From the NCBI GenBank assembly GCA_963588175.1, contig CAVAGP010000002.1:51515-115514 (forward strand): a DNA stretch of 64,000 bases, read 5' to 3'. The notes under the pieces were generated by a model. It did not search any database and was not told the origin of the DNA. It worked only from the letters and a program-made list of their open reading frames with translations. Position 1 is the stretch's first letter, and each line of letters starts with the position of its first letter. The DNA is from Faecalibacillus sp. GTDB lineage: Bacteria; Bacillota_I; Bacilli_A; RFN20; CAG-826. Below, in pieces: positions 4,202 to 56,514 of the stretch. A program made the position numbers and the translations under genes.

Positions 4202-4601
4202 ACTTTTGTTAATTTTAACATTAGTGGTTTGTTTTAACGACATCTATTTTCAAAATCACTTTTGTTAATTTTAACATTAGTTGTTCTGAAAAAATAAACA
4301 CGCACTCTGAAATTATTTCGCGAGCTACTTTTGTTAATATTAACATTAGTTAGAGCTTGACGCACGAACCACAGATAACAAACGAAACATTTGACTTTTG
4401 TTAATTTTAACAATAGTGTAATCATACACCTCTCCCCCTGCTGTATATGACTTTTGTTAATTTTAACATTAGTGCTACGTACAAAAATTATGCTATGATT
4501 TTTGAAAACGACTTTTGTTAAAATTAACAAAAGTCGTTTTTTATTTTCAAAAGCAACAACAAGGCATAGGGAATCTGACTATTGTTAATTTTAACAAAAG
4601 C
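4202..4601. repeat. Seven 24-bp dyad-containing direct repeats (iteron / centromere-like array)
   Basis: Copies of ACTTTTGTTAATTTTAACATTAGT (0-3 mismatches) at 4202, 4258, 4327, 4394, 4450, 4511 and 4578. Each contains the inverted half-sites TGTTAA-N4-TTAACA. Copy 6 sits in a 28-bp inverted repeat with two 13-nt arms (4509..4536, CGACTTTTGTTAA AA TTAACAAAAGTCG). Start-to-start spacing is 56-69 bp. Confidence 0.75.
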
Positions 4602-4672
4602 ACCTCAAAATAAATTAACAGACGAAAAAGTGCTAAAAAAAGGGATAGCATACGCTATCCCTTTTCTTATGA

Positions 4673-5524
4673 TTAAATAATGTTCACATATTTAGTTTCT
4701 TTATTCCAAGCAAGTAACCAACCAGAAGCGCAACGGACAAAAACGCTGCCGTCTTCACCGGTCTTAATGCTCTTACAAGTAATCTCAGTAGTTGCTTTCA
4801 GAGTGGCTTCCTTCGCGGACGTGCAGCACTTCTGAGTGTAAGCAGACAGATCTTTTTTAAGTTTAACATCTGCATCTTTTGAAGCTGCTGTTCTTAATTT
4901 TAAATCAGTACGAAGTTTGTACACCTTCCCTACTTCAAATTTCGGAGCAGTGTTTGATTTAACTTTAACTTGACCGTTCAAAATTTTCTTAACTTGAGAT
5001 TTAAAATCAATCCATTCTTTGTTATTGGAACCACACATCTGCTGAGGACAGCTTTTCATCGTACAATCATAGTGTCTCAATACATATGTATCCACCTGAC
5101 TCGCTGAAATACCGAGCTTCTTGCACATATACGCACAAACATAAGCAGCGTTGTTTTTGGTCTTTGAACTTACGCGAGAATTGCCGCTAGTACACATCTC
5201 AATACTGATTGAATTTTCGTTACGGCAATACGGATGCACATAAGACTTAGCGCCTACTGCCCACGCTCTATCTTTTAATTTTACCGATTGGATAATATGA
5301 CTCTCATCAACAAAGATATGCGCAGATGCTTTTCTCCCAGATGTTCTGAAATAGTTACAATTCGCCGCAGCCGTATCTTTGACATTGCCGGTATAGTGCA
5401 TAACCACATACTTCACAGTGCGGCCCGAACATGTCTCGTAGTTGCCACTAGAACAAGCAACATGCCCTATTTGGATACCGTTAATTTTTCCGTTAATCCA
5501 TTGGTCAGAAATATATTTACTCAT
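4673..5524 (-). CDS. Endolysin: N-acetylmuramoyl-L-alanine amidase (Amidase_2/PGRP-type) with C-terminal binding domain
   Basis: VKYVVMHYTGNVKDTAAANCNYF...ASAHIFVDE...NENSISIEMC...LRHYDCTMKSCP are typical zinc-amidase blocks. Start moved to ATG 5524 (GGAG SD). Holin-like genes lie immediately upstream. Confidence 0.85.
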   Translation of the reverse strand: MSKYISDQWINGKINGIQIGHVACSSGNYETCSGRTVKYVVMHYTGNVKDTAAANCNYFRTSGRKASAHIFVDESHIIQSVKLKDRAWAVGAKSYVHPYCRNENSISIEMCTSGNSRVSSKTKNNAAYVCAYMCKKLGISASQVDTYVLRHYDCTMKSCPQQMCGSNNKEWIDFKSQVKKILNGQVKVKSNTAPKFEVGKVYKLRTDLKLRTAASKDADVKLKKDLSAYTQKCCTSAKEATLKATTEITCKSIKTGEDGSVFVRCASGWLLAWNKETKYVNII

Positions 5525-5589
5525 AAAACACTCCATTCATTCCAAAATAAAAAGACCGCCATTTGGCGGTCTTTTATTTACAAATAATT

Positions 5590-5865
5590 TTACTCTTTCG
5601 CAGAGTCAGTGTCCGAACCAATTAATTCTTGCTGGTCGTCCAGCTTGTCATGATCTTCGTTCGGTTGGTCTTTGCCAACAGCGGCTGTATCAATTTTAGC
5701 CTCTGCCAAAATGTATGTAATAATAGATACCAGCGAGACTACTGCGCCAGACACCCCGGTGATTGTGTCTCCATCCAAACCAAACGCAAGCGCCAGACCA
5801 GACACAACACCAGCAATACAAGCCCATAATTTTCTGCTTGATAATTTTTTCAAAATAACGTTCAT
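5590..5865 (-). CDS. Holin candidate
   Basis: 91 aa with two hydrophobic helices (LWACIAGVVSGLALAFG, VSGAVVSLVSIITYILA) and a highly charged C-terminal tail. Lies directly upstream of the endolysin. Confidence 0.55.
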   Translation of the reverse strand: MNVILKKLSSRKLWACIAGVVSGLALAFGLDGDTITGVSGAVVSLVSIITYILAEAKIDTAAVGKDQPNEDHDKLDDQQELIGSDTDSAKE

Positions 5866-28465: not shown

Positions 28466-28497
28466 CAAAATATAAAAATAGCGGGGAAATCCCCCGC
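28466..28497 (-). terminator. Intrinsic terminator (minus strand)
   Basis: GCGGGGG-auuu-CCCCGC followed by UAUUUUUAUAUUUUG on the minus strand. Confidence 0.6.
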
Positions 28498-28531
28498 CGT
28501 TCGGTGGACTAGGGTCTTACGACCAGCCCAA

Positions 28532-30276: not shown

Positions 30277-30573
30277 GGATGAATACCATTTAAAAAGCTT
30301 ACCTCATATTATTGAGATGTGCTTTACCTAAACGTTTGGTATCCGTCCTGCTGATTGCAGTCAATGCATCATATCTTTTTAAACCATGCCATATATCATT
30401 ACTGATTCTGTTTTGGCATATAATACTCTTGCTTCCCAGCATTTACCCCTCTAGGTATTTTAAATCATCAAGAACCCCTATGTTAATATTACTTGTTCAC
30501 AACACCATTTTTATTGTGTTCTTGTAATAAAGTAGACTCGCTATACAACCCTATGTCTTTTGGGTCAATCAAA
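30277..30573 (-). ncRNA. Group I intron catalytic core (TMP intron 3)
   Basis: - P1: exon UCAUCAAGAAU (30584..30574) with guide GUUCUUGAUGA (30476..30466), 11 bp including U.G.
- P3: UACCUA/UAGGUA (30457..30452, 30330..30325).
- P/Q boxes: AAUGCUGGGAAG / GCAAUCAGCAGG (30443..30432, 30358..30347).
- P7: GGAUACC/GGUAUUC (30344..30338, 30287..30281).
- P8: AUCUCA/UGAGGU (30318..30313, 30306..30301).
- P9 hairpin lies just outside this span at 30257..30227. Confidence 0.7.
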
Positions 30574-31179
30574 ATTCTTGATGAATGCAGCAATACCGCT
30601 GCCAACAGCTATGGTTCCTAAAGAACCCATTGCACTAGTTATCTGATTAATGACTTGTAAGAATTCATTTGCACCAGAAACAGCACCTTTTAGAAAATCT
30701 GAATCTGCTAAGTTAGAAGAAGTCTCTTGGAACGTAGCCTTTAACTGACCAAGACGTCCTTGAATAGACTCCATATAACGAGCATTTTCTTGCTCGGCAC
30801 TACCTGCGGATTCGTACTCCGCTGTCTGATATGCTTCTTTAATCATATCAACATTATTCAGAGCAGCAGCAAGTGCGTTTGCTTGGTTCTTACCAGCGAG
30901 AGTTTCAAGTAATGCAGCCTGATCTATGTCAGACAGACTATCCCAAACCTCGCCGATACCGACGATAATATCATACATATTTTTAAATGTTTTACCGTCG
31001 GATTCCATAATGTCAAAGCCTGTCATGCTTTGCACAATGTTTTGTAATTTAGACGAGCTTGTGACTACATTATCTGTGTCTTCGCCCATTGTCTCAAGTT
31101 CAGTAGATGCACCACGGATACGAGCAGATACTGTTTTCCACATATTGCCTGTACGTGCTGCATCCTGTACGACAGCATT
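30574..31179 (-). CDS. Tape measure protein, exon 3
   Basis: Begins NAVVQDAARTGNMWKTVSARIRGASTELE and ends with the hydrophobic segment ...SLGTIAVGSGIAAFIKN. 606 nt, in phase with exons 2 and 4. The ORF-track ORF 30565..31143 is its 3' part. Confidence 0.8.
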
Positions 31180-31611
31180 CTATTGTATTCAATAAGGTCG
31201 TAAATCTTATTATGTATTATTTACATCATTATGTTTCCATAATGTATAGGTCATCTTTTCACCTGCGCCATTATGCGATCAGGGTACACTCTTTCCATTT
31301 AAGGGGTTTTCACCCACGCCATATACGATTGCGCCGTACTCCTATTGACTAATATAGTCCCGACACGGGGATGACCGTCGAACCTCTACTCTTACCGCAA
31401 AGCAGTAAGGCTTGGCTGCTGATTGCCAATTGCATAAATCTTTAGCACCCGAAGGCTTTTTTTCAGCATAGATTCATCTCAATATTTTTTTCTGCTTTCG
31501 CAACATTCACGTTTGTCTTTTCGACTGCGTTGTAGTATATTGAGCTTTATGGGTTCCCAGCAATTAAGTGTATTCTTAGGCACATATTTCTATATACCGA
31601 ACCTCTATCGA
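31180..31611 (-). ncRNA. Group I intron (TMP intron 2, 432 nt, no ORF)
   Basis: 5' splice site GGAACU|UCGAUAGA. Guide GGUUC pairs with exon GAACU (U.G at the site). P box AAUUGCUGGGAA, Q box GGCAAUCAGCAGCC. P7 is GGUCAU/AUGACC. Ends ...CAAUAG| with a terminal G. Confidence 0.8.
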
Positions 31612-31729
31612 AGTTCCTGTTGTTAATGCTATAGCTTGAGATAAGTCAGTGTTTGCTACTTTAAAACTAGCAGAACTACGTTGCAGAGCCTCGCCGATAT
31701 CATCAGACGATATTGCGAAATTATTAGAT
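31612..31729 (-). CDS. Tape measure protein, exon 2 (118 nt)
   Basis: Encodes (V)SNNFAISSDDIGEALQRSSASFKVANTDLSQAIALTTGT, the missing middle of the TP901-type TMP core. Too short for the ORF track. Confidence 0.8.
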
Positions 31730-32016
31730 CAATTGTTACTTTTCAAATTGAAAAGGCTAGGTCATTTCTGCCTAGCTCTCACGTTTTATATTTTTGATTA
31801 TTGCGTGAGGTCGGACTGTATATTCATCCTATAAGAGCAGGAGGATAACTTCAGTAAAATGTATTACTACATTAAACCCGGCAGTCTCTACGGATTCTAT
31901 AATTTTAAATCATAGTCTTTCCTCGGTCTGAACCATCTCTGGCCTTTAACCGATATAGTTATCGTCAACTCTAAAAAGAGAAGCATATGTGTTGCCACAT
32001 ATGGAGGCATCTGTTT
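31730..32016 (-). ncRNA. Group I intron (TMP intron 1, 287 nt, no ORF)
   Basis: 5' splice site AAUGAGGU|AAACAGAU. Guide GCCUC pairs with exon GAGGU (U.G). Q/R-like AAUCCGUAGAGACUGCC and S-like AUAUACAGUCCGA (P7 is GACUG/CAGUC). Ends ...AACAAUUG|. Confidence 0.8.
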
Positions 32017-33518
32017 ACCTCATTGAATTTGTCTACAACGGATTCTGCTTGATCTGCTTGTAATCCAAAACCTTGCAAGGTAGATGTCAAGCTGCTAGTA
32101 GCAGTATCAATATCAATATTGTCGCCAACGTTCTGATACAACGCAGCAACTTTAGCTAATTTGGTTGAATCCTCTAATCCGTATCCTTGACGTACCCAGT
32201 CGGAAGCGGAACGAATTACATCACTAACGGTATTGCCAGTTTGTTGAGCAATACTGCCTGCATCTGTAATGACCTTCTTATAGTCATCCGCACTGCCTGA
32301 CGATACTTTCTTCAGTTCAGTGAGGGCAGAGTCCAAATCAACTACATTGCTTACAATTGATTTAACGCCTTGTAACATATACTGAAAACTCATTGAGGTC
32401 ATCATATATGTTCCAAGAGTTTTAAATTTAGAAGTCAACTTACCAAAGACACTATTCGATGCCACGCCAGCTTCAAGAGCTTGCGTCTTGAACTGCGTGA
32501 ATTCGCCATTTAATTTATTGATCTCACTAATCTGTTCATCCGTATAAGTTCCTGTGGTTTTATACGCTGATACCAAACCTTCGACCTGTTGTCGAAGAGC
32601 TGAAGCATTACCAAAATCTTTAGCTTTCTTATTCGAGTTAAAGAAGTTTGCCATCTTGTTTTGCAGATTGATAATGCGATTGTAGGCGGCTTCTACTTCT
32701 TTTGCATTTTTGACAGCAGAGCCATCAACCAATAAACCATTGTTAGAAAAACTTTGTTTTAACGAATTGTGCTTTGCATTAAAATCCTTTAAAGAATCTT
32801 CGGTTAAATATGAACTATTTCGTAATTCATTAAACCTGCTATACTGCGCATCAAACTGTCTCTTTAATTCAGAATTATCGCTGAATAAGTTGTTTTTCTG
32901 TAAGACAGTTTGCAATTTAGCATACTGGCCTTCGTAGTCTTTTAAAATGTTGCTTCTATTCGATACTGCATTTGTTTTGTCTTTGGATAAAAAGGCGATA
33001 TCCTTACCGTTTCTTTTTGTTAGTGAGTACTGAAAATCCTGAGCAGCTTGTGCTCCCTCTTTAAAGGAGACAACCATATCTTTGCCCATTTGTTTATATG
33101 TAACACTAACATTCTTTCCAAGAGTAGTCGCGTTCTTTTCAATGGCGCTCCACTCTTTTTTTATGCCGTCAAAACTACCAGAAGCATAGGGAATATCAAA
33201 GCCTTTAAATGCTTGCTTCAATCCTTTGTTCTGGCTCTTAACCATTTTGGAAAAATTCTTTAAATCATTTGTAGATTTTTTGGTATCTACTTTTACATCA
33301 AGAGGCTTCTTTTCAACCGAGCCTTTTGCTACGTTTAAATTTTGGAGAGAAGAGGCAAGCCTCTTAATTTCATCGGCGGCAGTTCCATCAACGCCAACTT
33401 TGATTTTCCATTCTTTGCCGGTAATCTGTTTTTCTAATGAAGCTATGACTTCTTGGGCCGCAGACGCATCGGCAGTTACATTAACTTTAAGATCTGCACT
33501 TACAGATGTATTAGGCAT
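32017..33518 (-). CDS. Tape measure protein, exon 1
   Basis: GAGGTGGAG SD. Ends ...TLQGFGLQADQAESVVDKFNEV, the start of the conserved TP901-type TMP core. The ORF-track tail NRCLHMWQHICFSF is intron read-through. Confidence 0.8.
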
Positions 33519-41276: not shown

Positions 41277-42734
41277 TTAAAGTTGTTTCATATTTCTCAA
41301 GAGTCCGCCATACGCTTCTGCTTCGTTATCATTTGGAACATCAATCGGAACACGAATTGTCGAATTGGTTTTAACAGAGAAGTTCTGTTTGCCCAGCAGA
41401 GCAAAACACTGAGTCTCCAATTCTTCTATAGAATAATTAGCGGATTCTTCTTTTAATTTCTTATATTCGTCGCTGTGCTTCAGCGAATTGTCGAATTTGC
41501 TAAACAATGCCTCTTCAGCAGAAGCTCTCTGTGCTGCGAGAGTATCATTACGGAACTTGGACAGCGTTTCTACTTGCTGATTCAGATCATTAATTTTAGA
41601 ACTATATTCCGTTTCAGCGGATTCTTTTGCTTTATTAGCTACTACTTCAATCAGGCTAAAATGATAATCCTCATCTGCAATGTCCTGCTTCGGAACGAAT
41701 GTTAATCTCATTTCTTGTCCATTATCAAAATCAATTACTGCATTACCGTCAACGATTTGATATTTGTAAGCAAAATATTTGTCGTCCCATGTGCCAACGA
41801 AGCATGTGTCAAATGTGAAATCACATACATATCCATCTACGTCTTTGTTCATTAATGCTGCAAATAACATATTCCGAATCTCATTTGCTGTATATATAAT
41901 AGTTTGCGGAGTTTCCTCCGGAGCATCTTCCTCAATATTATCTTCAACAATAATACCATCCTCGGAAGCAGCGACGTTCGTGCTAATCCCCGGTTCTACA
42001 TTAGTAGAATCAGTAACATCTACGCTGGCTACTACAGTCTCAGCAACGTCAATATTCTCTTCCTGCACAGTTGCTTGTACATTTTCCTGCACTTTAACAC
42101 CTCCTGTTAAGTTTGCATATTCTTCAAGCATCTCTTTAACTTGGCTTTTAAATGAATCCTCTTTTGAAAAAACCTGTAAAGCTGCCTGCTGAAAACAAGG
42201 TTCGTCGCGTTCTAAAAGACAAAACGCTTCGAACTCGAATTCGTTAATATTCAAGATATCGTCTTCAATATCTCCTTTTCGAATCTTAATCTCAAATGAT
42301 TGAGCTGTGACTCCATCTTCCGCAATCTTCTCATAGCAAGGTTGCCGCTTCCAAAGAATTACATTGTCAATACAGAAATACTCATGCGGTACATTATCAT
42401 CTACAAGAGTCTCCCAACGATATGTAGCTGACTCCGGAATAACACCGACAGGTTCTGTAATGTTGATAATCTTTTCTCCGGATTCGGTTTCAACAACTCC
42501 CATATCATGACCGCCGATGGTATTCTCAGCAGCATCATAGTTCGCAACAATAGGGCAATTAAACATAGACGGAGCACTTGCTTCGAATGATTCATGCGTA
42601 AAATTTGTACCATTCGGGTTGTTGCCCGTATAAGCTACACGCAAAGTACCTAAAGCAAAACTGCTATTCAGGTCACGGATATTTGTTATCGGAGATTCTA
42701 GGAGAGAACTAAACGTATATCTTCCCATATTCAT
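41277..42734 (-). CDS. Scaffold / prohead-protease-like fusion candidate
   Basis: Start moved to ATG 42734 (GGGAGGTG SD). The N-terminal ~200 aa are globular (CPIVANYD...IGGHDMG). The middle is acidic and low-complexity, and the C-terminus is a coiled coil. Confidence 0.4.
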   Translation of the reverse strand: MNMGRYTFSSLLESPITNIRDLNSSFALGTLRVAYTGNNPNGTNFTHESFEASAPSMFNCPIVANYDAAENTIGGHDMGVVETESGEKIINITEPVGVIPESATYRWETLVDDNVPHEYFCIDNVILWKRQPCYEKIAEDGVTAQSFEIKIRKGDIEDDILNINEFEFEAFCLLERDEPCFQQAALQVFSKEDSFKSQVKEMLEEYANLTGGVKVQENVQATVQEENIDVAETVVASVDVTDSTNVEPGISTNVAASEDGIIVEDNIEEDAPEETPQTIIYTANEIRNMLFAALMNKDVDGYVCDFTFDTCFVGTWDDKYFAYKYQIVDGNAVIDFDNGQEMRLTFVPKQDIADEDYHFSLIEVVANKAKESAETEYSSKINDLNQQVETLSKFRNDTLAAQRASAEEALFSKFDNSLKHSDEYKKLKEESANYSIEELETQCFALLGKQNFSVKTNSTIRVPIDVPNDNEAEAYGGLLRNMKQL

Positions 42735-49585: not shown

Positions 49586-49610
49586 ATGAAAAAGACTGCC
49601 GAAGCAGCCC
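49586..49610 (-). terminator. Intrinsic terminator (minus strand)
   Basis: GGCUGC-uucg-GCAGUC followed by UUUUUCAUUU, just after the stop of 49617..50255. Confidence 0.55.
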
Positions 49611-49616
49611 TTTTCG

Positions 49617-50255
49617 TTATCTATTTTTGAAGCATTCGTCGTACAGCGTATCAATATCATTATCAATTAATTGATGTGATCCGCTATTATTAAACGGAAC
49701 CAACAATTTAATATTCGCAGACTTGCTCTTTACATTTCCATTCCACGATCGAGTTGTGTTCTCTTTTTTATATTCGGTGCGATCAATATAATCAAATACC
49801 TGCAACTCACGGAGATAAGATTCATATACGCGTGTTCTACTATATCCTAACCAGTGACATAACATTTCGATAGACATATCGAAACAATTGTCTTTATCAG
49901 CGGCTACCTTTGCGTAGCAAAGAATAGCTAAAGCTGTGCGACGAATGCGATCATTATCAAACCGAGAAGTAATCTCTTCAATATCACGTTCAGATATACG
50001 GACAGTTACATCTTCACGCAGTCTGCGTTTATCATTCTCGGCTTTGTAAATTAATTGGTTGACGTTAAGCTTTGTGACATTCAAATATAAATGCCGTTCC
50101 GTAGCCCATTCAAAAATATTTTTTCGCACTTGCAGCGGACTACATCCTTCTTGTAGCCAGTACTTAGCTAACAAATAGCAGTACCCATACATGCATTTTT
50201 TATACACCGGTTTATCACTTAACAGATCCTGAACCAATAACATTTCGTTGACCAA
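49617..50255 (-). CDS. Hypothetical protein (possible wHTH)
   Basis: 212-aa ORF immediately downstream of the polymerase gene. Confidence 0.45.
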   Translation of the reverse strand: MVNEMLLVQDLLSDKPVYKKCMYGYCYLLAKYWLQEGCSPLQVRKNIFEWATERHLYLNVTKLNVNQLIYKAENDKRRLREDVTVRISERDIEEITSRFDNDRIRRTALAILCYAKVAADKDNCFDMSIEMLCHWLGYSRTRVYESYLRELQVFDYIDRTEYKKENTTRSWNGNVKSKSANIKLLVPFNNSGSHQLIDNDIDTLYDECFKNR

Positions 50256-50257
50256 AC

Positions 50258-50882
50258 TTATATCTTCTCCAAACTATATTTATTTCCCAAGTATTCATAC
50301 TCGCCATTGGGATCTCTGATTGGCAGATATTGTTCAGTCTGCTTTAAGTTGGCGAGTATTCCTTCACCTCCGCAGACCCACATAAAGTTTTTGGTTTGCT
50401 TGGGGTATCTCTCATAACAGATCATCACACAGTAATTTGCCAGCTCACAAACGTCAGGGCAAATATCAAAACATGCAAGACGATATTTGTTGTGGAATGC
50501 TTGCCAATTAATATCAGCAGTATATGTTCCGTCTGAATTGTTTGCACTCTTAGTCAAAGACTTTCGATATGCTTTTATCAGACTATCAGCTTCTTCTCTA
50601 AACGCTATATACAACCTTTCTATTTCATCCATTTTGTTTTCGTCGATAGGGATATTCTTGTCAATCATGATTGTGTAATCAAACGACTTGTCTCGACGCT
50701 TGTATTTAAACTGATTATGCCAATGCTCTATATCCCAACACAGTTCGTTCATATTGCTATGTGTTTTAGATAATGTCTTCATGGTTGCATAATACGGAGA
50801 TGCATACTTCATGAAGTAGGGAAGAGGTTTGGCATATTTTGCAATATAACGAGGTATCTTATAAATTACTCCAGTTTTGGCG
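50258..50882 (-). CDS. RdRP/YonO-like RNA polymerase, exon 3
   Basis: The reading frame is open upstream of the ORF-track ATG (…AKTGVIYKIPRYIAKYAKPLPYFMKYASPYY…). It joins exon 2 as GCG AU|C GCC. Confidence 0.7.
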
Positions 50883-51162
50883 CTATCTCATCATTGGACT
50901 ATCTCTTCATCTCTAACGAGATGGGCGGCGCTACGGACGAATGACTTTCACATCGTCCTCTTATCCTTTCGGAAATTTAGTCTCTGCACCTTCAACAAAG
51001 CTTGGCACAGGATTGCATCATATAATAAATATACGTGTTTTCCTGTTAGCAGAGATCCTAACTACCATTATCCTGTAGTTCCTCAACGTGACCTCTACAC
51101 CTCTTTTGAGTTCACCGTCTTTTTCTCATCACTCGTCGCCGAGTGAGGCGACAGATTAGTCT
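50883..51162 (-). ncRNA. Group I intron (polymerase intron 2, 280 nt, no ORF)
   Basis: 5' splice site GCGAU|AGACUAAUCU. Guide GUCGC pairs with exon GCGAU (U.G). R box AGAGACUAAAUUUC and S box AAGAGAUAGUCCA (P7 is GACUA/UAGUC). Ends ...GAGAUAG|. Paralogous to intron 1. Confidence 0.75.
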
Positions 51163-51440
51163 ATCGCTTTGCCATTAATTACTGAGAGTAAATCTATATA
51201 AGATTCATATTTTTTTTGTTGTTCTGGTGTCTTCGGTCTTTTGTTATGATACGTAGTAGCACAATTGCTCGTTTCACCAATCAACGAATTCTCTCCTCGC
51301 AAAATTGCTTTTGCCTTGTTTTCTGGAATATCTTCTTCTTCAAGAACAGTAACTTTATCCTCTATGTCTATCACAATGGGTATATCTCTATGTACCCCTT
51401 GCATCATAGTTTTGTTATCCACTACCAAAACTAGGTCGCC
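51163..51440 (-). CDS. RdRP/YonO-like RNA polymerase, exon 2
   Basis: Begins GDLVLVVDNKTMMQG, completing the DFDGD motif. 278 nt. Confidence 0.75.
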
Positions 51441-51724
51441 CGTTATGGACTATCTCTTGCCCATGCCTTAAAAGGTTTAGGGTGTGGCACTACGGAGAGG
51501 GGAGTTGCACCCCACCCCTCTTATCATTATGAAATTTAGTCTCTAAAGGTTCTGAGTTAATATTTCAGTTTCCCACGGGATTCTCTTAGACAGCAGTATT
51601 CCCCGTTAGCTTGCCTTCTAGCTATCAGTTACTATAGCTCCTAAACGTAAGACAAACACCCTGCAATTACAGGTTCACCACGTAAGCGACATAGGTTTCC
51701 CTATGAAGTGACAGCGACCAGCGT
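51441..51724 (-). ncRNA. Group I intron (polymerase intron 1, 284 nt, no ORF) inserted in the DFD|GD catalytic motif
   Basis: Exon ends GAU UUU GAU|. The intron starts ACGCUGG... and ends ...CAUAACG|GGC GAC. It shares the blocks GAAAUUUAGUCUCU, CCUCUUAUC, GC(A/G)CUACGGA and GGACUAUCUCUU (plus-strand reading) with intron 2. Confidence 0.8.
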
Positions 51725-53251
51725 ATCAAAATCGCTACCAGATAGTCTTTGAGCTACAAGTGAATTTCCGTTCACCATGCATACATTAACTAAATGGCAG
51801 CACCATTTATCTGTTAAATCATTATTAACAGCGTTGAGAATAACATGTTCTGATCGGCAGATATGTGGATTGCGCTCGATCAGATATTCTCCATTAAACT
51901 TACCGTTCCGATTAAAAGTAAAGAACTCATCCTCTTTAAGGCAGCCAACCGGAGGCAGTCCTCCGATGTGTTCCATCAGCATAACAAGATCTGGAGCTTC
52001 AAATTTAAAACATGCTTTTAAATAGAGCTTTCCACACTTCATCTCATTGATGGTTTTATCAAGCAAAGACCTAACGTATTTATACGTTCCTTCTTCCTTA
52101 ATCATTTCTGAGTTCTTAACCAGAGCTTCCATATAAGGATTCATTCCTTTGTGACTGTCTGCAAACATACCAAGAAATACATAGAGGGCAATCTTGTCTC
52201 CGTTCAAGATTTTTTCCATCAGCTCACAGGAATCATTTGCAAGAGTTTGAAACTCTTCGTATGGCAAATCAAGATCCTGTAGTATTTGATAGTTACCTCT
52301 CGTATAAATTGGTTCTTCCTCCGCAGAGAAGTTCCACTTCGCGACACCAATACAGTGGTTATACTTCCGGAACATATTCCAATAATGTTCCCAGTCACGT
52401 TTGTCCTTATAATTCTTAAAGTATTTAATGCCCTTATACATAGACTCGCACATGATGATAGCAGGTTCAGCAGTAGGGGAGACATCATATTTTTTTCCCC
52501 ATACGTCTGTAATCTCTGTTATACCATGTTCCGCAAAAAAGTCTGTGTAATTCATTTCATGTGTAACTCCTTTAATAAAAGGAGCACGCCATAGAATAGA
52601 TGTTGGATCAGACTTTGCATCCAACATGCCTCTCACTGTATCTGTGATATCCGGGTGATGTATGCCGCAACCATCAAAGACATTTATCTTGATGTCTTGA
52701 GTGCCAGTTGCAATATCTTTCTGTTTCCACGGAAAAGGCTCTCCAGTCTCTTTATTTATTAAAGTCAGCTCTTTATCGTACACATACTTAATACGTTGCT
52801 GAGGGAGCACCTTTTCATAATCCGGAACAATGATAATTCTCGGATACCAATCTTCAAGACAGTGACATGATGACAACATCAACCCACGATAAGCATACCA
52901 TTTAGACAGTACAGTCTTATCAATATGCAAATCCATAGTTACTCGACGGGTTAGTTCTTCGCTAATAGACTCATCAACAAAAGATAAGATAGAGGTACGA
53001 ACCATGCTTGCAGAACGTTCTCCGACTACATAGTGTCGGTCTCCAATCCAAAGTCCTTCATGAACCAAACCAACCATTGCTTCTTTATGAGATTTACCGC
53101 CTTTACAATCAACAAAAATAATATAATCGTTATATTTGCCGATATCTCCAGTAATCAATCGTATCTGTCGGAATAACATATTGTCTTGCTGATTAATGTA
53201 GTAGCATCTCAAAAAATCTTCGTCGCCCGGAAGATGATTATTATTCTCCAT
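51725..53251 (-). CDS. RdRP/YonO-like (two-barrel) RNA polymerase, exon 1
   Basis: The C-terminal part EYLIERNPHICRSEHVILNAVNNDLTDKWCCHLVNVCMV...LSGSDFD matches the cellular RdRP/QDE-1/YonO pattern RNP...D..vl.AV....l.hl.nv.....(n)lsGgDxDGD. The spliced product is about 809 aa. Confidence 0.6.
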
Positions 53252-53301
53252 CAAGAGAGATAATTGAAACTTTTTTACTTTGTATAATGTAGGGGCGAAG
53301 A

Positions 53302-55054: not shown

Positions 55055-55260
55055 ATTCCTGCCACTCAAAATGTGTTTAAACATACTCAAACACATCGAG
55101 AAATTGAAGTCCTTACGGATACTTCTCACTGCTTCAATGTGTATGCTTTGGCGATTGCAAATAATGCGCTACTCACAAGTTCTTGTACACTCCGCAGTCG
55201 TTAATTCCCGAAATAGCCTTCGGTACATACTTACGTTTGCTTGATTATGCAATCTCGTAA
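55055..55260 (-). ncRNA. Candidate omega/reRNA of TnpB (3' end of element)
   Basis: Hairpins CCGAA-ggcuau-UUCGG and GAAGU-auccguaagg-ACUUC lie downstream of the tnpB stop. Placement is typical for the TnpB guide RNA scaffold. Boundaries are not determined. Confidence 0.35.
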
Positions 55261-56405
55261 GTTACAGCATCTTTTAGATTAAGGGCAGCATTGAAATCCC
55301 TATCTTCAATATAGCCACATGAACAACGATATGTTCTATCTGAAAGTTTTAAATCTTTCTTGATAGCACCACAGCAGTGACATATTTTGGATGATGGATA
55401 CCATCTATCTACAACCCTTAACTCAACACCATTATCATCACATTTTGCTTTTAGCTTAGTTCTAAATTTATAGAATTTCTGTGACGCAACAGCTTTTGAA
55501 AGATGCCTGTTCTTCATCATGCCTGATACGTTCAAATCTTCAATAACTATATAAGATGGCTTGGTTTTCACTATCTCGGCTATTGTTTTATTGATATAGT
55601 CCGTGCGAATATTATTTATCTTATGATGAAGTCTTTGTACTTTAAGCTTCTGTTTTTGTATATTCTTTTGAGTAGACTCTCCTTTCTTTAAATTCTCATA
55701 TTTACGTGAGAGACATCTTTGTTCTCTACGCAATTTCTTTTCCAATTTTTTGACTCTTGCTGACTTATTGATATTTTTATAAGTTTTGCCGTTAGAAACA
55801 ATCGCTAAGTCTTTCAAGCCTAGGTCAATCCCCACACCATCGCCATTATTGTTAGCAATTTTAGTATCGGGAATTTCTACAAGAGCTGATACATAGTATC
55901 TACCTGCTTTGATGGATACTGTCCCGCTTCTGATTTTCCATCCGTCTTTAGTTGTTGGTATATAGCCTTTTTCTTTAATGCGTACCCAGCCTAAAGTCGG
56001 TATGTTTAATCTATGTCTCTCGCATCTACAATCTTTGGGATTGTTTCTTACGAAATACATTTTTACATCAGACTTACCTTTCTTTTTGAAATTAGGAAAA
56101 GCACTTTGATGTTTAAAAAATCTTGTAAATGCAGTACATCCATCTTCAATAGACTTTTTTACAGCTTTTGAAGACACTTCCTTAATCCATACTTTGTCGG
56201 GATTATTTGGAATGTATTCGTTGTTAAGCCATACACTAAAGTCTTTGCCCGACATAAATCTCTCGCCTTTATCATGCAAAGCCTTGTTGTGGCCAAGATA
56301 GAAGTTATAGACGTATCTACAAATGCCAATAGTCTTGTCGATCTTGACTTTCTGCTCGACTGTTGGATTTATTTCCGTTTTGAAGCTTTTTAGTAATTTC
56401 CTCAT
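55245..56405 (-). CDS. tnpB: TnpB (IS605 OrfB) RNA-guided endonuclease
   Basis: RuvC-I GIDLGLKDLA, RuvC-II YIVIEDLNV, zinc finger SSKICHCCG...YRCSCG, and RuvC-III DRDFNAALNL. Confidence 0.85.
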   Translation of the reverse strand: MRKLLKSFKTEINPTVEQKVKIDKTIGICRYVYNFYLGHNKALHDKGERFMSGKDFSVWLNNEYIPNNPDKVWIKEVSSKAVKKSIEDGCTAFTRFFKHQSAFPNFKKKGKSDVKMYFVRNNPKDCRCERHRLNIPTLGWVRIKEKGYIPTTKDGWKIRSGTVSIKAGRYYVSALVEIPDTKIANNNGDGVGIDLGLKDLAIVSNGKTYKNINKSARVKKLEKKLRREQRCLSRKYENLKKGESTQKNIQKQKLKVQRLHHKINNIRTDYINKTIAEIVKTKPSYIVIEDLNVSGMMKNRHLSKAVASQKFYKFRTKLKAKCDDNGVELRVVDRWYPSSKICHCCGAIKKDLKLSDRTYRCSCGYIEDRDFNAALNLKDAVTYEIA

Positions 56406-56514
56406 CTCCTTATATTTGTTTTTTTACACTTACGAAGACCGTACAATCTACAAAAGAAAATGTGAGGTATGGATACAATATCCTGTAATCACTATTGTCA
56501 ATACTTTTAATTAC

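Follow-up and report, generated by a model that had tools for sequence, protein, structure and literature searches.

A predicted YonO-type RNA polymerase gene interrupted by two group I introns at conserved motifs in a temperate phage

The interrupted gene and its product

The 64-kb window analysed here is the whole stretch of 64,000 nucleotides (nt) taken from contig CAVAGP010000002.1 of the Faecalibacillus sp. assembly GCA_963588175.1, and all coordinates count from its first letter. On its minus strand, between 53254 and 50258, it carries a phage polymerase gene that appears as three open reading frame (ORF) pieces of 517, 90 and 184 amino acids (aa). Gene callers annotate separate ORFs of 516, 83–92 and 184 aa, and the NCBI-derived protein P0011 corresponds to the first of these pieces. 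The 517-aa ORF (51701..53254) ends in ...RLSGSDFD-TLVAVTS*, and the frame of the 90-aa ORF, read 5' of its called start, gives GDLVLVVDNK; both readings, made in a first-pass annotation of this DNA, are confirmed in the sequence. We interpret 53251..50258 as one gene with three exons and two ORF-less group I introns, encoding an 811-aa YonO-type single-chain polymerase (Table 1), and we place the probability of this interpretation at roughly 0.88.

Removal of the first spacer, 51724..51441 (284 nt), joins GAT TTT GAT to GGC GAC and yields SGSDFD|GDLVLVVD, with U51725 as the last exon base and G51441 as the end of the intron, exactly as had been proposed. For the second spacer, the proposed 5' site after T51163 and the P1 helix GCGAU/GUCGC with its U.G pair were retained, and the 3' end was moved from G50883 to G50889. 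The junction G50889|A50888 produces GKAI|DSAKTG, and the product counted from the ATG at 53251 is 811 aa long instead of about 809 aa. The motif GKAID(S/x)AKTG is found in 13 of 13 homologues of a first alignment and in 36 of 36 of a larger one, with D603 invariant. Exon 1 can be aligned to uninterrupted homologues up to DFD and exon 2 in one piece, and the alignment has no gap at DFD|GD or at the corrected AI|DS. The spliced coding sequence is also colinear with that of an intron-less allele (locus L229, which encodes P0001; 77.5% DNA identity), gap-free at both junctions; the site sequence of this intron-less type is GACTTCGAT|GGAGA. The predicted ligated exon junctions read GATTTTGAT|GGCGACCTA at site 1 and AAAGCGAT|AGATAGCGCC at site 2, and the 24-mers AGCGATTTTGATGGCGACCTAGTT and GGCAAAGCGATAGATAGCGCCAAA would allow spliced RNA to be recognised. 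The three exons are undamaged and stay in phase, with no loss of any residue that is invariant in the family. An in-frame TAG lies 7 codons into intron 1 and an in-frame TAA 2 codons into intron 2; such early stops are usual for phage introns.

Table 1. Coordinates of the polymerase gene, its introns and the adjoining features in the window
Feature	Coordinates	Strand	Description
Exon 1	51725..53251	-	ATG at 53251; residues 1-509, ending ...SGSDFD; DFD codons 51733..51725
Intron 1	51441..51724	-	Group I, 284 nt, no ORF; preceded by U51725, terminal G51441
Intron 1 guide	51709..51718	-	GUCGC-UGUCA; P1 between UGUCA and exon UGAU with intron A1, U.G at the splice site
Intron 1 5' core	51575..51682	-	P3 5' strand 51681..51676; hpA 51673..51660; hpB 51657..51609; P4 51606..51601 with 51580..51575
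Intron 1 3' core	51448..51541	-	P7 GACUA 51541..51537 with UAGUC 51452..51448; P7.2 51521..51496; P3 3' strand 51489..51484; P8 51482..51460
Exon 2	51163..51440	-	Residues 510-602, GDLVLVVDNK... to ...LLSVINGKA and bases 1-2 of the Ile codon
Intron 2	50889..51162	-	Group I, 274 nt, no ORF; preceded by U51163, terminal G50889 (corrected)
Intron 2 guide	51148..51156	-	AUCU-GUCGC; GUCGC pairs with exon GCGAU (P1, U.G)
Intron 2 core	50897..51119	-	P3 51119..51113 with 50930..50924; hpA 51110..51102; hpB 51098..51049; P4 51046..51041 with 51012..51007; P6 51006..50988; P7 50982..50978 with 50901..50897; P7.1 50973..50964; P7.2 50958..50935; P8 50923..50908
Exon 3	50258..50888	-	Residues 602-811; base 3 of the Ile codon followed by DSAKTGVIYKIPRY...; stop at 50260..50258
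212-aa ORF	49617..50255	-	Start overlaps the polymerase stop codon; the same gene follows the polymerase in locus L206
Terminator-like hairpin	49588..49615	-	Directly after the 212-aa ORF; probably the end of the transcription unit

The spliced product falls into the YonO and RNA-dependent RNA polymerase (RdRP) family by several searches. It passes the Pfam RdRP profile PF05183, the check suggested by the first-pass annotation, with 53.7 bits against a cut-off of 23.8 (E = 1.9e-14, residues 58-639), and the match spans both junctions. It matches phrog_8308 from end to end (E = 5.6e-84) as well as phrog_4291, which is labelled 'RNA-dependent RNA polymerase'. BLASTP aligns it to YonO of phage SPbeta over 659 residues at 23% identity (E = 2e-25), placing DFDGD on DNDGD and NGKAIDSAKT on NNFTIDFAKT. 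The DFDGD triad is present only once intron 1 has been removed, and all 37 sequences compared have D507, D509, G510 and D511. Uninterrupted homologues of 800–880 aa number more than 100; they are up to 84% identical and include gp3 of Thomasclavelia phage TR-TP1 and proteins of prophages of Diplocloster, Anaerolentibacter and other Clostridia.

The predicted structure agrees with this placement. An AlphaFold2 model of the spliced product, made from a 37-sequence input, reached a predicted local distance difference test score (pLDDT) of 91.2 and a predicted template modelling score (pTM) of 0.88. A PDB sequence search with the product gave noise only, and the fold search was needed. Foldseek matched the model to RDR2 (7w82, E = 5e-21) and QDE-1, with E values from 5e-21 to 1e-15, and also to gp62 of Thermus phage P74. 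Twenty-one PDB matches to RDR2/QDE-1 lay at E <= 3.5e-14 with a template modelling score of about 0.5, the large subunits of multisubunit polymerases were matched far more weakly, and the viral library contributed phage 'RdRP' models and the P23-45 polymerase. The reading of the spliced product as a YonO/RdRP-type enzyme with a metal-binding DxDGD loop is borne out by PF05183, by BLASTP and by Foldseek, and the structural check gave the expected RDR2/QDE-1-like fold. The assignment as a two-barrel RNA polymerase thus holds, with the individual barrels read from the overall fold match.

'RNA-dependent' is merely the name of the Pfam family. YonO itself is a DNA-dependent enzyme that requires its Asp triad and transcribes the late genes of SPbeta (PMC5467207; PMC8270828). 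Downstream of the window gene, all on the same strand, lie an HU-like gene and genes for a recombinase, terminase, portal, tape measure and tail proteins; an HU-like gene also comes after yonO in SPbeta and in phage Goe14. By analogy with YonO and from this gene order, the window polymerase would be DNA-dependent and would act on the late genes. The rest of the late operon is intact. The phage is temperate, and its host is a gut Clostridia-type bacterium.

The two spacers as members of one group I intron family

Rfam searches of the whole window at the gathering threshold found no intron, and at a lax threshold they found intron 2 only (Intron_gpI, RF00028; 30.8 bits, E = 3e-5, threshold 50), which leaves the Rfam check suggested in the first-pass annotation answered for intron 2 at the lax setting and for neither intron at the threshold. 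The Rfam model has been reported to under-detect phage introns (PMC11878797). As Rfam missed the introns at threshold, we therefore built our own family models. The two introns share a skeleton in which GGUGAAC and GGUGU are each followed by a hairpin, the second being the longer, and then by GCUAAC-GGG, AAUCC-GUG and the R and S boxes. As a gapped pattern, this skeleton has at least 120 matching stretches in viral contigs, and the fetched loci hold at least 133 copies of the intron family. Members that do pass the Intron_gpI threshold are found in L138 (73.4 bits), L095 (62.5 bits) and L132 (59.2 bits).

The proposed core is supported by covariation across the family. Unguided folding of 27 non-redundant members with RNAalifold returned P3, two hairpins termed hpA and hpB, P4, P6 and P6a; 22 of the 34 pairs showed compensatory changes, and four P3 positions each showed all four Watson-Crick pair types. 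With 133 further copies aligned to the model, 94.3% of cells pair, compared with 64.6% in shuffled controls and at most 44% when the partners are slid, and double changes occur in 43 of 47 pairs. One P4 position had been left free in the search pattern, and it is paired in 119 of the 125 matches (AU 84, GC 22, UA 10, CG 3). A covariance model, R2, was derived from 36 sequences that excluded those of the window, with the structure obtained automatically. In the 64-kb window it found intron 2 at 50895..51123 (132.1 bits, E = 2.1e-31) and intron 1 at 51446..51686 (123.6 bits, E = 2.7e-29), both aligned over the full model; the next window match was at E = 0.03, with none lower. Full-length family members span a range that includes these scores of 124–132 bits. 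Weak covariance-model matches elsewhere in the window were treated as noise, namely 42307..42501 (E = 0.013) inside an intact ORF, and 56069..56170 (E = 0.034) and 56390..56459 (E = 0.36) in or at the edge of a TnpB gene.

The 3' part of the core follows a recognisable order. Both introns have P7 as GACUA/UAGUC, with compensatory variants in L096 (GACCA/UGGUC) and L099 (GAUCA/UGAUC). The two strands of P7 enclose a small P7.1, then P7.2, which has a conserved GUGAAAUUC-like loop, then the 3' strand of P3 and finally P8. Such an order from P7 to P8 is that of the Twort and T4 IA2 introns. We tentatively call the subgroup Twort/T4-like (IA2-like). The hairpins hpA and hpB, inserted between P3 and P4, are not known from Twort or td or from the canonical group I scheme; we flag the insertion as a feature of this intron family and claim no novelty for it.

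The guide sequences (Table 1) can also align the downstream exons. In intron 1, GUCGC can form P10 with the 3' exon GCGAC, and in intron 2, AUCU can form a 4-bp P10 with AGAU. Locus L083, which has introns at both sites, shows a compensatory P1 change at site 1, where exon position -4 is C opposite a guide G, compared with U opposite A in the window; its intron 2 has the same P1 and P10 pairings as window intron 2. Both window introns end in the expected G (G51441 and G50889), and these junctions restore the conserved protein gap-free. An intein, a group II intron and stop-codon recoding were considered and rejected: the spacers have stops in all frames, match the group I covariance model and show no reverse transcriptase or domain V features. 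Both spacers are group I introns, and their cores and pairings suggest that they are self-splicing.

The relationship between the two introns is less simple than had been assumed. The blocks AGAGACTAAATTTC, GATAAGAGG, CCGTAG(T/C)GCC and AAGAGATAGTCCA are present in both, as first noticed, and from them it had been concluded that one family had spread within the gene. The two do belong to the same intron family; they are not simple recent copies of each other. Overall they are 56% identical in the family alignment, as is typical of members. In the 5' half (P3 to P6) identity is 54%, and they rank only 16th and 23rd of 26 in each other's lists, whereas in the 3' half (59%) each heads the other's list, and the private blocks lie in the 3' half only. 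GACTAAATTTC and CCGTAG[TC]GC are absent from all 125 other copies, and GATAAGAGG is found in 3 of them. The shared blocks are found in neither intron of L083 (78% identical) and are present in L206 (94-95% DNA identity to the window). The simplest reading of these sequences would be that the 3' core has been exchanged between two neighbouring introns of this lineage; a recent duplication of either intron fits less well.

A megablast search of the gene region against phage genomes gave a single match, 64 nt of intron core (about 51599..51662) at 87.5% identity. The matched stretch is unannotated in Staphylococcus phage vB_SsapH-Golestan101-M (42395..42458), and, going by this similarity, it is probably a related intron.

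Insertion sites in related genes and neighbouring features

Interruption of such genes is recurrent and confined to two short regions. Interruptions are present in 19 of 80 viral loci that encode relatives, in every case close to residues 508-510 or 596-604, and in 1 of 17 full-length genome-derived loci. Five insertion points are recognised: AD|YDGD, D(F/Y)D|GD (window site 1), NG|KAID, the Ile codon of AI|DS (window site 2) and ID|xAK. From the positions of these insertions, the two catalytic or conserved motifs are hot spots for introns in YonO-type genes. The short introns at these points belong to the same RNA family. Long introns with endonuclease ORFs also occur, encoding NUMOD4 plus HNH_3 in L067, HNH_3 in L073, and GIY-YIG in L061 and L076; intron 2 of L083 has an ORF that matches no Pfam family and that, on visual inspection, looks like a GIY-YIG remnant.

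The closest relatives, loci L206-L209 (98% aa identity), contain in intron 1 a 152-aa HNH_3 ORF, which adds about 540 nt to the P6a loop at a point corresponding to window 51555..51558. These loci were fetched via protein P0121, as P0011 has no contig on record. No endonuclease ORF lies within window intron 1 or 2 (284 and 274 nt). Because L206-L209 carry the HNH_3 ORF in the same intron, window intron 1 is read at the sequence level as an endonuclease-less allele of a mobile intron, and both window introns would depend on other elements for their mobility. At least 23 contigs have the same gene structure, at 94-95% nucleotide identity.

Goe14 (OL580764; locus L084) provides an interrupted yonO in a named phage, where the annotation shows yonO_2 and yonO_1 with a hypothetical protein between them. 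What separates the two is a 1289-nt group I intron (4514..5802 of the locus) of the same RNA family, with the GTGAAC...GCTAAC core, and it encodes a 300-aa GIY-YIG/NUMOD3 endonuclease. Its insertion at TID|FAKT, as judged against SPbeta, is 4 nt from window site 2. We found no description of the Goe14 yonO gap as an intron in the open-access literature. A yonO_1 label in Goe11 (MT601272) hints at the same split.

Two further observations concern the relatives. In L068-L082, with an intron at NG|... (site 2a), the residues downstream are QECDFAKT, compared with KAIDFAKT in L061 and L066, whose intron lies at the same site, and the change may be an exon alteration carried along with the intron. 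In many of the viral contigs L085-L204, several copies of the intron family lie close together, with five in L154 and three each in L088, L103, L119, L161 and L171; multiply-invaded genes seem common in these phages.

The tape-measure gene of the window (30565..33518, minus strand) is also discontinuous. It consists of a 515-aa ORF (33518..31971), a middle exon at about 31725..31612 with NNFAISSDDIGEALQRSSASFKVANTDLSQAIALTTGT, and a 192-aa ORF (31143..30565), and its large pieces match consecutive parts of phrog_4211 (493-721 and 775-937). The gaps gave a sub-threshold Intron_gpI match at 31227..31622 (31.4 bits, E = 7.7e-5) and a weak match to our model R1 at 31812..31966 (E = 2.8e-4), and on these matches they are probably two more group I introns with approximate boundaries. 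Elsewhere in the window, a TnpB/IS605 OrfB-type gene (55245..56405, minus strand; Pfam OrfB_IS605 and Cas12f1-like_TNB) is directly followed on the same strand by a RAGATH-18 RNA (55126..55198, 66.6 bits). A DUF3800-XI RNA lies in the tail-gene region (28483..28530, minus strand), a full-length Rfam match with 62.9 bits at a threshold of 37.8.

Alternative explanations, proposed expression and known systems

Several points weigh against two active introns in a functional polymerase gene. In L206-L209 the last exon base at site 1 (window 51725) is C (GAC|AUG, where the window allele is GAU|ACG), and a C-G pair would replace the nearly universal U.G at the 5' splice site. Neither window intron reaches the Intron_gpI threshold, and intron 1 is unmatched even at E <= 10. 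The two hairpins between P3 and P4 are not known from the canonical group I scheme, and P5 and P7.1 are short and weak in intron 1. On the protein side, the preference of this clade for DNA or RNA templates is argued by analogy from YonO, to which it is only 23% identical. The low Rfam scores and the weak helices, together with the lack of endonuclease ORFs, would fit decayed, non-splicing relics in a polymerase pseudogene of a defective prophage. We regard this as improbable, as the intact, in-phase exons with every invariant residue, covariance scores in the range of full-length members and pairing in all core helices speak against it, as do the conservation of the same structure in the 23 or more contigs and the intact remainder of the late operon.

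The originally proposed end of intron 2 at G50883 would give GKAI|AKTG with the junction AAAGCGAT|CGCCAAAAC and a protein two residues shorter; this junction also follows a G and keeps the frame. It would nevertheless delete D603 and the next residue, which are present in 36 of 36 homologues, and would open a 6-nt gap against the intron-less allele L229. The 3' exon would then begin with CGCC, which cannot pair with the guide AUCU as AGAU can, and the S box would be followed by a 12-nt spacing, compared with 5–7 nt in intron 1 and in the L083 and L058 introns of the same site. We consider G50883 a very improbable boundary. Least probable of all is separate translation of the three ORFs without RNA splicing, as a split polymerase resembling the multisubunit enzymes of jumbo phages. 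Gene callers do annotate three ORFs, but the break would fall between D and G of the metal-binding loop, and the called ORFs of exons 2 and 3 start past conserved residues, losing GDLVL from one and DSAKTGVIYKIPRYIAKYAKPLPYF from the other. Moreover, both spacers have the RNA structure of a group I family, and most homologues are single chains.

For an intact, spliced polymerase gene we propose the following course of expression. Transcription, presumably by the host polymerase, would take in the gene together with the genes upstream of it, and each intron would fold into a Twort/T4-like (IA2-like) core comprising P3-P8, P7.1/P7.2 and the two hairpins between P3 and P4. The guide would pair with the end of the upstream exon in P1, where free guanosine would attack at the U.G pair of the cleavage site, and would then align the downstream exon in P10 for ligation after the terminal G. 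Ribosomes reading in from the exon would be halted by the early intronic stop codons, and only the doubly spliced mRNA would encode both the DFD|GD loop and the AI|DSAKTG motif. By analogy with SPbeta YonO, the polymerase would then transcribe the late structural operon downstream. The introns themselves would be of a mobile kind that homes into these two conserved motifs throughout the YonO family, present here as alleles that lack the endonuclease.

A more speculative extension, which we think unlikely, is that splicing acts as a timer or metabolic gate for the late switch and that intron occupancy also shields the gene from HNH and GIY-YIG enzymes of co-resident YonO-encoding phages. Under the gate idea, the polymerase would be made only after two ribozymes had folded and free guanosine nucleotide had been used. 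Under the protection idea, occupied DxDGD and IDxAKTG codons would be a form of interference competition, as in PhiPA3 versus PhiKZ.

With this locus, YonO-type polymerase genes join the essential phage genes that group I introns are known to invade. The ribonucleotide reductase genes of SPbeta (PMC8270828) are an example of introns placed in conserved and often catalytic codons of such genes, and DNA polymerase introns are cited as further precedent (PMC11620839). The locus is a new example of a known habit of mobile phage introns, and its closest precedent, an intron in a phage two-barrel polymerase, is already known in PhiPA3; understanding of how such systems work is unchanged by it. In the open-access literature on yonO-type or RdRP genes and introns we found no interrupted yonO-type gene, and the interrupted copies stand unremarked in GenBank. 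The two most conserved motifs offer at least five insertion points, used from phages of gut Clostridia to SPbeta-like phages of Bacillus. There is also a consequence for annotation, as the gene is recorded as a 516-aa 'RdRP' fragment with two orphan ORFs, and its catalytic loop is invisible until the introns are removed. Rfam's model mostly misses this populous intron family, which could be used to improve intron-detection models.

Among known systems, SPbeta YonO (Forrest et al. 2017, PMC5467207) is likewise a single-chain two-barrel polymerase of about 810-840 aa with an aligned Asp-triad loop and IDxAKT, encoded upstream of an HU-like gene and late structural genes. It differs in that yonO is uninterrupted, in sharing only 23% identity, and in its host, Bacillus instead of a gut Clostridia-type bacterium; the activity of the window clade would follow from YonO by analogy. 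The intron in the beta-subunit gene of PhiPA3 (Birkholz et al. 2024, PMC11620839) also interrupts a phage two-barrel polymerase gene next to conserved aspartates, at a homing target shared with related phages. In that phage the polymerase is a multisubunit virion enzyme, the interrupted gene encodes a beta-like subunit, and the single intron is associated with the HNH endonuclease gp210, which was shown to harm a competitor phage. In contrast, the window polymerase is a single chain interrupted at the beta'-like DxDGD loop and at a second motif by two ORF-less introns, and close relatives carry an HNH ORF in intron 1.

Among introns, the Twort/T4-type IA2 introns, including the Bastillevirinae clades (PMC11878797), resemble the window introns in the order of P4-P6, P7, P7.1/P7.2, the P3 3' strand and P8, in near-consensus R and S boxes, in endonuclease ORFs placed in peripheral loops and in the occurrence of several introns per gene. 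The two covarying hairpins between P3 and P4, which are not known from Twort or td, set the window family apart. Closest in the target gene is the yonO of Goe14 and Goe11 (OL580764, MT601272), which in Goe14 is interrupted by a group I intron of the same family, with the difference that Goe14 has one intron only, equipped with an endonuclease, and belongs to a different YonO clade.

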